DNA from: a virus
UHGV virus genome: UHGV-0196721
Strand: one strand, 5' to 3'
DNA length: 45,223 nt
Numbering within the stretch: position 1 is the stretch's first letter; each line of letters opens with the position of its first letter. Shown here piece by piece: positions 33,001-36,000 of this stretch. The position numbers were made by a program.

Positions 33001-36000
33001 ACATATATCAACAAATCTGGCGAACTGAAAACGGCGGAAATTAATGAGCCGCGATTTGAGTGTGATGGCCTGCTTATTGAGGGACAAAGAACGAACTTCT
33101 TCCAGAACAGTACAGACCCTTCGAAGTGGAATAAGTCAACTTCACTGGACGTTACAGAAACAGGCACAGATAGTTTCGGGTTTAATTATGGCCGGTTTGT
33201 CGTACAGGATTCGATTGTTGGTACAAGTAAAGCGCATACCATTATCGGACTGTATTCGAGTACCGGAGGGGTTGATACTTCAGGGGACGAAAAGCATGTA
33301 ACTATATCCTGTCGGGTAAAAAGTGAAGTTGATAATATCGCCGTTCGTATTTTATTTGAACATTATGATGGGGAGGTAAGGACATCAATAGGAGCAGCAA
33401 ACCTGAACCTTACCACCCGCATAATTAGCAAGACAGGTCAGACAAGCCGTGTTACAGCAAGGTCTGTTAAGGATGATGCAACTGGCTGGATATTTTTTGA
33501 GGCTACATTAAAAGCAGATACAACAGAAAATACGGTTGGTGGTTTTGTCCAGTATTCTCCGGATACAGGGCAGATGGTTGCATCAGGGGATTATCTCGAT
33601 GTAACCACTCCACAGATTGAGGCTGGTACAGGCGCATCATCTTTTATTGTTACGGGGACGGCACCGGTAACGCGGGCAAGCGATATGGTTACAGTTCCGA
33701 TTAAGAATAATCTTTATAATCTTCCTTTTACGGTTCTTTGTGAGGTACATAAGAACTGGTATAAAACGCCAAATGCAGCACCGCGTGTTTTTGACACATA
33801 CCGGCATCAGGCAGATGCGGGGATCGTAATGGGGTTTGGTTCATCAGGTGGGTACGACGGTTTTCCGTATTGCGATATAGGTGGTTCAGACCGACGAATA
33901 AATGAAAATGCCGGGCTGGAAAAAATGCTTATTGGTATGCGGGTAAAGTCCGAACGGTCCACATGTGTAGTCAGTAACGGTAAGTTAAGCAGCGAAACTA
34001 AAACCAAATGGGAATATATCCGGAGTACAGCAACCATTCGCATTGGTGGACAAACTACAGCAGGATTACGCCATTTATTTGGGCATGTGAGGAATTTTCG
34101 TCTCTGGCATAAAGAGCTAACAGATGCGCAGCTTGGGGAGGTTGTGGAGTGAGAGATTTCACGTTGCGTTTCAGTGATAAAGCAGATTTCAGGGCATTTC
34201 TCAGGAAACTTAACTGGGAAGAGGACGAAGAGCTGCAGAATGCCGTTCTGGTTGATGAGATTGGTTTTACGTTCAGGGAGACAGATGTTTCTGATGACGG
34301 AGAACCAGAATACACGCGAAACGAAGGGTACTTTGTTAATATCCGTCTTCTTGACGATGGATTTGATGATTCCGTGTTCCGTGAGTGGGTGGTTACACCA
34401 GAGCGCCCGCTCAGGGAGTGGTTTTAAGGATAGCAGATGGATATCACGTCGATACTTCATGCGCTTTGTGCCGTAGCGGTGCAGGTACTGGCTGGTCTTT
34501 TTACCGGAAACTGGGCTTACGGTGCGATAGCCGGTTGTACGTTCTTCATTGCGCGTGAACACACCCAGGCAGAATATCGCTGGATTGAAATGTTTGGGCA
34601 TGGCAAGAGGATTAACATGCCGTGGTGGGGCGGTTTTGATCCGCGCGTGTGGGATGTGGCAAGCCTGATGGATTTTGCTGTGCCGGTGGTGGCGTGTCTG
34701 CTGATCTGGATGTTGATCCGTTAAATATAAAAAGTAAAAAGCCGCAGTAACTTGTCATGACAGGATACTGCGGCTGGCTGGTTAACTTTCGATAGTGCGA
34801 GTATTGAATGATTTCCAGCTGTTACTGATTTTATATAACTGCAGTGGAATTATTCAACACACAGGCAAAACGGAATAAGCTGAGAAAAAAAGCGTGCTTT
34901 CCCAATCTGGGGTAAATCACATCTGAATGACACCTGAAAACAGGTGGTGGCCTCAAGAAGGCTTGGAATATTCTTCTTTAATGTTATGTAATTTATTGAT
35001 TTTTCGTGTACGATTTTAAGACATTTATTCCAAGAAAAATTTTTAACTCTTTGATTTTTCGACTCTGTATCATCGGTCTCGAAAACCGGAGTGGGGGCAA
35101 CTCCACCGGGGGTTCAAATCCCCCTCTCTCCGCCAAAATTCAATCACTTACACATCATTAAGTCAGTGACAAAAATCACACTTGGAATTACTTGGAATAT
35201 TTTCTTGGAATATTTTCAGGTAACGGGACATCAAGTGTCGGTGAAACTTTAACCTTCCTGTCATAGATTAGCACTTGCCCCTCGGTTTTGTGACCAGAGA
35301 AAAGTTGCTTATCCCGGCTGCTTCCTTCATAGTCTGAAATTCCTTTCGCCTTCAGATCATGAAAGGTGAAGTCGGTTAAAATACCTGAAATTTTGCCTGC
35401 GCGATTTCTTGCTTCTACCCACATTTCGTTAAAGCCTTTGTACATATATCGGTTGCCGTATTGATTGCTGATTACATAGGCGGATGTTGGTAACTGTTTT
35501 GCTTTTTCGATCGCCGCCTGTAATCGTGGACTCCATGCTTTTATCTGTTTTTTCCCTGTTTTCCCTTGCTGGATAAAGATCCCGTCGTTTCCAATCTGCT
35601 CCCATTTCAGCGATAACACATCGGAAACCCTCGCTGCACACAGATAGGCAATTTCCATTGCGATAAAAACAGGAAGAGGTGCAACGCTTAATACTGCCTG
35701 GTATTCTTTGTCGGTTACATATCGTTCGCGGTTTTTGGCCTTGAATTTACTTACACCTGCACATGGGTTAGCCTTCACGTACCCTCGCTCATATCCCCAA
35801 CTGTAAACGCGGGACATACTGCTTTTTTCATGGTTGGCTTGCGTTTTACTCTGCCCCCCTCTCTGGTCCATGTATCGACGGATGTGTTCTGGTTTTATGG
35901 AATCTGCCGGCACCTTACCGAATACGGCAAGCAACTTTTTTTGATGTTGCAGATAATCTTTTTGTGTTCTTGGACTGAGGTCACTGTAATAGGCGCTGGC

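Follow-up and report, generated by a model that had tools for sequence, protein, structure and literature searches.

The window, that is, the whole 45,223-bp stretch of UHGV virus genome UHGV-0196721 analysed here, very probably carries at positions 34955-35212 the complete phage attachment site (attP) of a temperate lambda-like phage of Escherichia coli that integrates into the tRNA-Ser(CGA) gene serU, and very probably represents the whole, circularly permuted genome of that phage. The elements follow one another as an arm-type site candidate, an IHF site, a second and inverted arm-type site candidate, a second IHF site, the core, three tandem arm-type site candidates and the integrase gene int, so that the region reads as a canonical lambda-type attP in its unintegrated (P-O-P') form (Table 1). 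The original prediction had described an attP-like junction composed of P arm, tRNA-Ser 3' core, P' arm and int, and this is borne out by serU lysogens, in which the left arm is found at the right prophage junction (attR) and the right arm together with int at the left one (attL). It had also placed the 3' part of a tRNA-Ser(CGA), devoid of its 5' half, some 50 bp from int, with stf genes on the far side of the core; the CCA end of the core is indeed separated from the int stop codon by 52 bp, stf lies to the left of the core, and no host DNA adjoins the core segment.

Table 1. Features of the attachment site and of other parts of the window (empty cells: not given).
Feature	Position	Strand	Remarks
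P arm of attP	34955..35073	+	Conserved block between the end of the late region (stf and two small open reading frames) and the core
Distal P-arm arm-type site candidate	34962..34970	+	CTTGGAATA; GCTTGGAATATTCTT invariant in 16/16 junction variants
IHF consensus site 1 (predicted)	34989..35001	-	AATCAATAAATTA, consensus WATCAANNNNTTR; ATTGATTTTTCGTG invariant in junction variants
Proximal P-arm arm-type site candidate	35026..35034	-	CTTGGAATA, inverted relative to the others; CATTTATTCCAAG invariant in 16/16 junction variants
IHF consensus site 2 (predicted)	35044..35056	-	AATCAAAGAGTTA; consensus positions kept in diverged P arms, e.g. AATCAAAAGGTTA in L038
attP core	35074..35135	+	3' 62 nt of tRNA-Ser(CGA) gene serU
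Strand-exchange interval	35074..35092	+	Contains anticodon loop CTCGAAA (35078-35084) between inverted anticodon-stem halves
P' arm of attP	35136..35212	+	Three tandem arm-type site candidates
P' arm-type site candidate 1	35181-35189	+	CTTGGAATT
P' arm-type site candidates 2 and 3	35191-35199, 35204-35212	+	CTTGGAATA
int, 341-aa lambda-type tyrosine integrase	35188..36213	-	Pfam PF00589 Phage_integrase, E 4.5e-11
67-aa DUF4224 protein	36213..36416	-	Pfam DUF4224, E 2.8e-16; directly upstream of int, overlapping the int start
Side tail fibre gene stf	32089-34152		Pfam phage_tail_N; followed by two small open reading frames and ~350 bp of non-coding DNA
cosN	12161-12172	+	Exact lambda 12-mer GGGCGGCGACCT; internal to the window
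Lambda-type terminase gpA	12781-14766		
Accessory genes of the late-regulation region	7-693, 4197-5246, 5296-5545, 6520-8373		

The tRNA core and its exchange with serU

The core (35074-35135) reads CGGTCTCGAAAACCGGAGTGGGGGCAACTCCACCGGGGGTTCAAATCCCCCTCTCTCCGCCA and, when aligned with serU of strain K-12 MG1655 (locus L005), matches it from base 2 of the anticodon stem through the CCA end, with 60 of the 62 positions identical, as expected of the predicted host tRNA-Ser 3' end. The sole two differences, G35093 and C35104, constitute one compensatory change, the third pair of the variable-arm helix being G-C in the phage copy versus A-U in the host gene; some P-O-P' junctions elsewhere (L099, L101, L104) carry the host-type pair at these positions. 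No complete tRNA is called by ARAGORN at the core because the 5' half is missing, and the partial, sub-threshold Rfam matches obtained there, to a plastid 3' untranslated region family and to tmRNA, were rejected, since they reflect the T arm and the acceptor 3' end.

The segment 35074-35700 matches hundreds of E. coli chromosomes, in which it is annotated as integrase and tRNA-Ser. In the attL loci that were fetched, the P' arm and int adjoin a complete serU beside mtfA, and the same P' arm and int were found next to full serU in 47 attL loci of IMG/VR, where the 3' part of the gene is phage-type in every case (47/47). Both junctions could be read in strain B2.3, which carries a single prophage with the left arm of the window at its attR; the order there is mtfA, serU, P' arm, int, DUF4224, exo and, further on, Q, tRNA genes, lysis, terminase, head and tail genes, J, lom, stf, two small open reading frames (ORFs), P arm, the 62-nt tRNA fragment and finally non-phage DNA. 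In three- and four-way alignments the two marker positions are phage-type (G..C) at the B2.3 attL and host-type (A..T) at its attR, and these junctions correspond, in a comparison made on sequence only, to the exact reciprocal products of recombination between the attP of the window and the K-12 bacterial attachment site (attB). The crossover therefore falls between the first identical position, 35074, and the marker at 35093, that is, within 19 bp (35074-35092) that include the anticodon loop and hold no internal marker. Other tRNA-targeting integrases suggest, by analogy, that the likely overlap region is the 7-nt anticodon loop and that the flanking halves of the anticodon stem would be the core-type Int sites.

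The chimeric tRNA formed at attL is called by ARAGORN as tRNA-Ser(CGA) and keeps the same cloverleaf fold, with the variable-arm pair changed from A-U to G-C; as this pair is carried by the phage copy, lysogens should therefore express an altered tRNA-Ser(CGA). In tRNA-Ser, the variable arm is the one recognised by seryl-tRNA synthetase.

At the attR flank of B2.3 (L003 7575-7620), the sequence AAAATCAATCACTTATAAATAATT, similar to the start of the P' arm, is present beyond the tRNA fragment, and after it comes an island with DUF6387 and H-NS-like genes; this flank suggests that another element is resident at serU in that strain.

Arm-type sites, IHF sites and the integrase

The octamer CTTGGAAT is present in 7 copies in the 45-kb window versus 2.04 +/- 1.21 in shuffled sequences, 7 copies being reached in 0 of 100 shuffles. 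Five of these copies are clustered within 250 bp (34962-35211), two to the left of the core, one of them inverted, and three in tandem to the right, while elsewhere in the window only two are found, at 9214 and 43931. The plus-strand copies near the core start at 34962, 35181, 35191 and 35204, and the minus-strand copy occupies 35027-35034, so that every coordinate given for cttggaat repeats by the original prediction holds. With an expectation of 0.011 copies per 250 bp, the Poisson probability of five together is, by our own arithmetic, about 1e-12 per position. The exact nonamer CTTGGAATA occurs four times in the window, all four in the attP region, and no additional, degenerate copy was detected near attP when one mismatch was allowed. 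The candidates in the P' arm are spaced by 10 and 13 bp. The perfect IHF consensus WATCAANNNNTTR is found three times in the window, two of them in the P arm, one after each left-arm motif, and the region of IHF site 1 forms an 18-nt direct repeat with 35044-35061.

The conservation of these motifs was assessed in 16 distinct P-O-P' sequences, gathered from IMG/VR, metagenomes and three chromosomes by pattern scans and integrase-based locus retrieval; the junction was found in 8 contigs of IMG/VR, 7 of the JGI/ENA metagenomes and 0 of the GTDB representatives. The five motifs are invariant in all 16 except that, in L106 and L107, G replaces C in the third P' copy, and the other substitutions are confined to the spacers. 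Homology has a sharp onset near 34955, some 7 bp beyond the outermost motif, and the sequence upstream is unrelated in L038, L050, L104 and L107, so that this onset appears to be the left edge of a functional module. Relatives with integrases 61-62% identical have three direct repeats of their own at the same P' position, between the int stop codon and the tRNA core: TATACCAAG, TATACCAAC and TATACCAAG in L090, which also uses serU, and TATTCTT three times, plus one more copy across the core, in L073, L085 and L089, whose core is that of tRNA-Ser(UGA). Different integrases thus go with different words, repeated in the same number and at the same place, as arm-type sites would show. The clustering, the 2 + 3 layout and the conservation in the 16 variants all favour what had been proposed for the repeats, namely that they are consistent with integrase arm sites, and make the five CTTGGAAT(A) copies putative Int arm-type sites, next to the two predicted IHF sites.

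One of the chromosomal P-O-P' junctions, in E. coli O55:H7 DEC5B (L106, 40-3310), has an NleG/DUF1076 type III effector block before the P arm.

A full-length alignment of the integrase with lambda Int structures, beginning at residue 1, was obtained (1z1b, E 1.7e-12), and phmmer pairs its residues 1-60 with residues 1-65 of lambda Int, the arm-binding region with the signature MGRRR..LPPN(V/L)Y; the catalytic Tyr lies within a conserved LIYDRK motif. The adjacent gene for the DUF4224 protein is annotated together with int in 7/7 fetched int regions of serU prophages, and its product is a putative excisionase or directionality factor on account of position alone.

The P' arm and the end of int also share a 13-bp unit, CTTGGAATATTTT (35191-35216 in the window), which is present in 2 copies at 1 locus, 3 copies at 66 loci and 4 copies at 3 loci, the variation being represented by L053, L050, L094 and L098. 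The C-terminal tail of Int differs with each copy-number variant (..PSNSKCDFCH, ..PRKYSK and ..KKIFQVIPSVIFVTDLMMYK); the array extends over the last int codons, so that gain or loss of a unit affects the number of arm sites and the Int tail together. That slippage of this array acts as a heritable switch tuning the efficiency of integration or excision, in a family with Lys in place of the second catalytic Arg, is a speculative idea to which we attach very little probability.

Several observations weigh against the interpretation of the site as a functional lambda-type attP with Int arm sites. The Pfam arm-binding domain model was not reported for Int at E <= 0.01, and the P' arm, which in lambda contains H', yielded no IHF consensus. 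The R-K-H-R-H-Y catalytic set is incomplete in Int, where K288 (window 35350-35352, in FHDLKAKG) stands at the position of the lambda catalytic Arg311; this Lys is invariant in 16 homologues of 55-85% identity, and the substitution is a trait of the family, not a lesion. Moreover, PGAP labels int as frameshifted in several genomes (M15, B2.3, CFSAN067215), a label on the 3-copy int that is probably explained by the 13-bp copy-number variants; a dead integrase, to which the label might point, was rejected since many 341-aa homologues share this C-terminus. Finally, the P' copies at 35191 and 35204 lie inside the last 8 int codons, and part of the conservation of these two motifs could be coding constraint.

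This last point bears on the alternative of a real attP whose CTTGGAAT repeats would serve not as Int arm sites but to encode the C-terminus of Int or to bind the DUF4224 protein or a host factor, which we regard as unlikely. The tail IPxxYSK, to which the two coding copies contribute, recurs in homologues 65-85% identical, as that alternative would have it; nevertheless, only two of the five copies lie in coding sequence and all five stay unchanged between diverged arms, family members differ in both the length and the sequence of the Int tail past the catalytic Tyr, and the three repeats of the relatives lie wholly downstream of the int stop codon. In addition, two plus three sites flanking the core, with IHF sites between, is the layout of the lambda Int arm sites as generally known.

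With the repeats taken as arm-type sites, integration could proceed as follows. The N-terminal domain of the 341-aa Int would bind the five CTTGGAAT(A) sites, two in the P arm and three in tandem in the P' arm, and bending of the P arm by IHF at its pair of consensus sites would deliver arm-bound Int to the core, where the anticodon-stem halves would serve as core-type sites and the loop as the probable overlap. Strand exchange with serU, placed within 35074-35092 by the B2.3 junctions, lets the phage copy replace the 3' 62 nt of the tRNA gene, restoring an intact tRNA-Ser(CGA) at attL with G-C for A-U, and leaves the displaced host 3' part at attR, as observed. Excision would need the adjacent DUF4224 protein.

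The window as a unit-length genome

When the last 1500 and the first 1500 bases of the window were joined and the resulting 3000-bp wrap-around query was searched against complete E. coli genomes, it was recovered as a single uninterrupted 3000-bp piece at 100% identity in many E. coli prophages, and at least 80% of it was covered in 506 E. coli genomes. Relative to the prophages, the last and the first base of the window are contiguous (gap 0, overlap 0), and the piece sits within their early regions (DUF1627, DUF977, QueH, hokD). The internal cos of the original prediction corresponds to an exact lambda cosN, about 190 bp upstream of the terminase genes. The lambdoid gene set is full, comprising Q, lysis, terminase, capsid, tail, int, exo, repressor and replication modules, and host genes are absent from the 45 kb. 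The contiguous ends, the exact cosN and the full gene set free of host genes therefore point to one complete, unit-length, circularly permuted phage genome, opened at an arbitrary point, with attP and cos both internal; it is because a whole phage genome was cut open in this way that attP resembles a junction. The proposal that the window is an excised or circularly permuted genome or a tandem junction, and not one bordered prophage, is thus sustained by the perfect wrap-around and the lack of host DNA, with the wrap-around favouring circular permutation. In the INPHARED phage collection, the best matches account for 57% of one half of the window and 66% of the other, so that the genome appears to be a new mosaic of familiar modules, and this mosaic is not in that collection.

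That the junction comes instead from two prophages in tandem at serU, the second integrated into the attL or attR of the first, and that the circular look is due to collapse of the copies during assembly, is judged quite improbable, even though such arrays exist. In strain M15, mtfA, serU, int to stf, P-O-P', int to stf, attR and zinT follow one another head to tail, with a junction 98.9% identical to that of the window; the chromosomes of DEC5B (O55:H7) and STEC299 carry P-O-P' joints as well, and identical tandem copies, if assembled from short reads, could likewise yield a closed circle. By contrast, an exact wrap-around, with neither gap nor overlap, is expected of a unit-length circle and not of a cut through a chromosome, the 45 kb hold no host genes, and the junction of the window occurs at 100% identity in no complete E. 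coli genome. The wrap-around and the lack of host DNA speak for a genome that was circular or packaged. The P-O-P' joint would, moreover, be an attP structurally and functionally in the tandem case too.

The two M15 prophages (NZ_CP185789.1, 1.264-1.349 Mb; L001, L009, L010) are related to each other, one having IS5 after Q and the other IS903B in the tail fibre gene, and yodB is not annotated by their attR.

The notion of an inert scar, in which the tRNA fragment would be an attR acquired through aberrant excision or recombination by a phage that uses another att site, finds a parallel in the phages ev099, PhiR70_1 and mEp332, which match the window only through P arm and core, but can be set aside as extremely improbable, given that the core of the window is phage-type (G..C) and is followed not by host DNA but by the same P' arm and int that stand beside full serU at attL in the lysogens examined, and that the window showed no second ORF of integrase size accompanied by an att candidate. 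In ev099 (LR597635.1; L006 2560-2900), the phage of the three that was inspected closely, the core is host-type (A..T) and continues into K-12-type DNA from downstream of serU, and the int of that phage lies 2.4 kb further, after an AraC-type regulator gene and transposase fragments; this segment looks like an attR captured as passenger DNA, and the scar reading was rejected for the window, whose phage-type core with P' arm and int beyond differs from it.

Relation to known systems and neighbouring features

The attP described here resembles, in its sequence, that of the lambda attP/Int/IHF/Xis system in several respects: the site spans about 250 bp, the integrase is homologous over its full length and presumably of the heterobivalent type, two P-arm and three tandem P'-arm repeats are present, IHF consensus sites occupy the stretch from the P-arm sites to the core, int directly adjoins the P' arm and has immediately upstream of it a small gene putatively for directionality, and the prophage gene order is the same. 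The arm sites of lambda attP are likewise arranged as 2 + 3, whereas its core is a 15-bp stretch of identity within the gal-bio intergenic region, in contrast to the 62 bp of a tRNA gene used here. Other differences from lambda are the arm word CTTGGAATA, the P' arm devoid of an IHF consensus, the Lys in place of Arg311, the embedding of two P' sites in int codons, and a DUF4224 protein as the directionality candidate, no homologue of lambda Xis having been detected.

Integrases that target tRNA genes, including those with a crossover in the anticodon stem-loop, were reportedly classified by Williams in 2002. The present site is like those of the anticodon-stem-loop group, with identity running from the anticodon stem to the 3' end of the gene, a replacement 3' part, an intact gene at attL and a crossover bounded to the anticodon stem-loop; it differs in that the replacement copy swaps a variable-arm pair from A-U to G-C.

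The serU gene is a documented prophage locus in E. coli, for example in Shiga toxin-producing E. coli (STEC) O145:H28 and O121:H19 (PMC7067040, PMC8767318), and phage SerU-LTIIb (KU052038) has the same 62-nt pseudo-tRNA-Ser annotated at its attR, beside yodB. The window shares its site with these serU lambdoid prophages, and in the lysogens examined an identical int and P' arm lie beside serU, but it shows the unintegrated P-O-P' form; likewise, its junction is the same as in the tandem array of M15, from which it differs by wrapping exactly, without host flanks. In the literature search, serU was met as a known prophage site, and no paper was found on the arm sites of this attP or integrase.

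The value of these data lies mainly in annotation, since they identify a whole temperate phage genome in place of a bordered prophage and fix its attP, core, crossover interval and cos; no concept is changed, the process being lambda-type site-specific recombination at a tRNA gene. They also provide CTTGGAATA as a candidate arm-site word for an integrase that hundreds of E. coli genomes carry at serU, among them those of pathogenic lineages in which serU prophages carry effectors. The mapped site could aid the calling of prophage boundaries at serU, and is a candidate integration tool.

A scan of 34300-36600 for promoters and terminators gave nothing exceeding the expectation from shuffled sequences. 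A hairpin (CACCTG-AAAA-CAGGTG) at 34931-34946, across attP from int and about 250 nt beyond the int stop codon, is absent in diverged P-arm types; its position corresponds to that of the lambda sib/tI retroregulator. An inverted repeat of 18 bp without spacer, 89% complementary (34740-34775), directly follows the last small late ORF (34437-34724) and, although a simple terminator scan did not list it, is likely the transcription terminator of the late operon. No toxin gene was noticed among the accessory genes of the late-regulation region, which include QueH (epoxyqueuosine reductase), an N6/N4 DNA methylase, tRNA-Met, tRNA-Arg(TCG), tRNA-Arg(TCT) and a DUF1737/SASA esterase.

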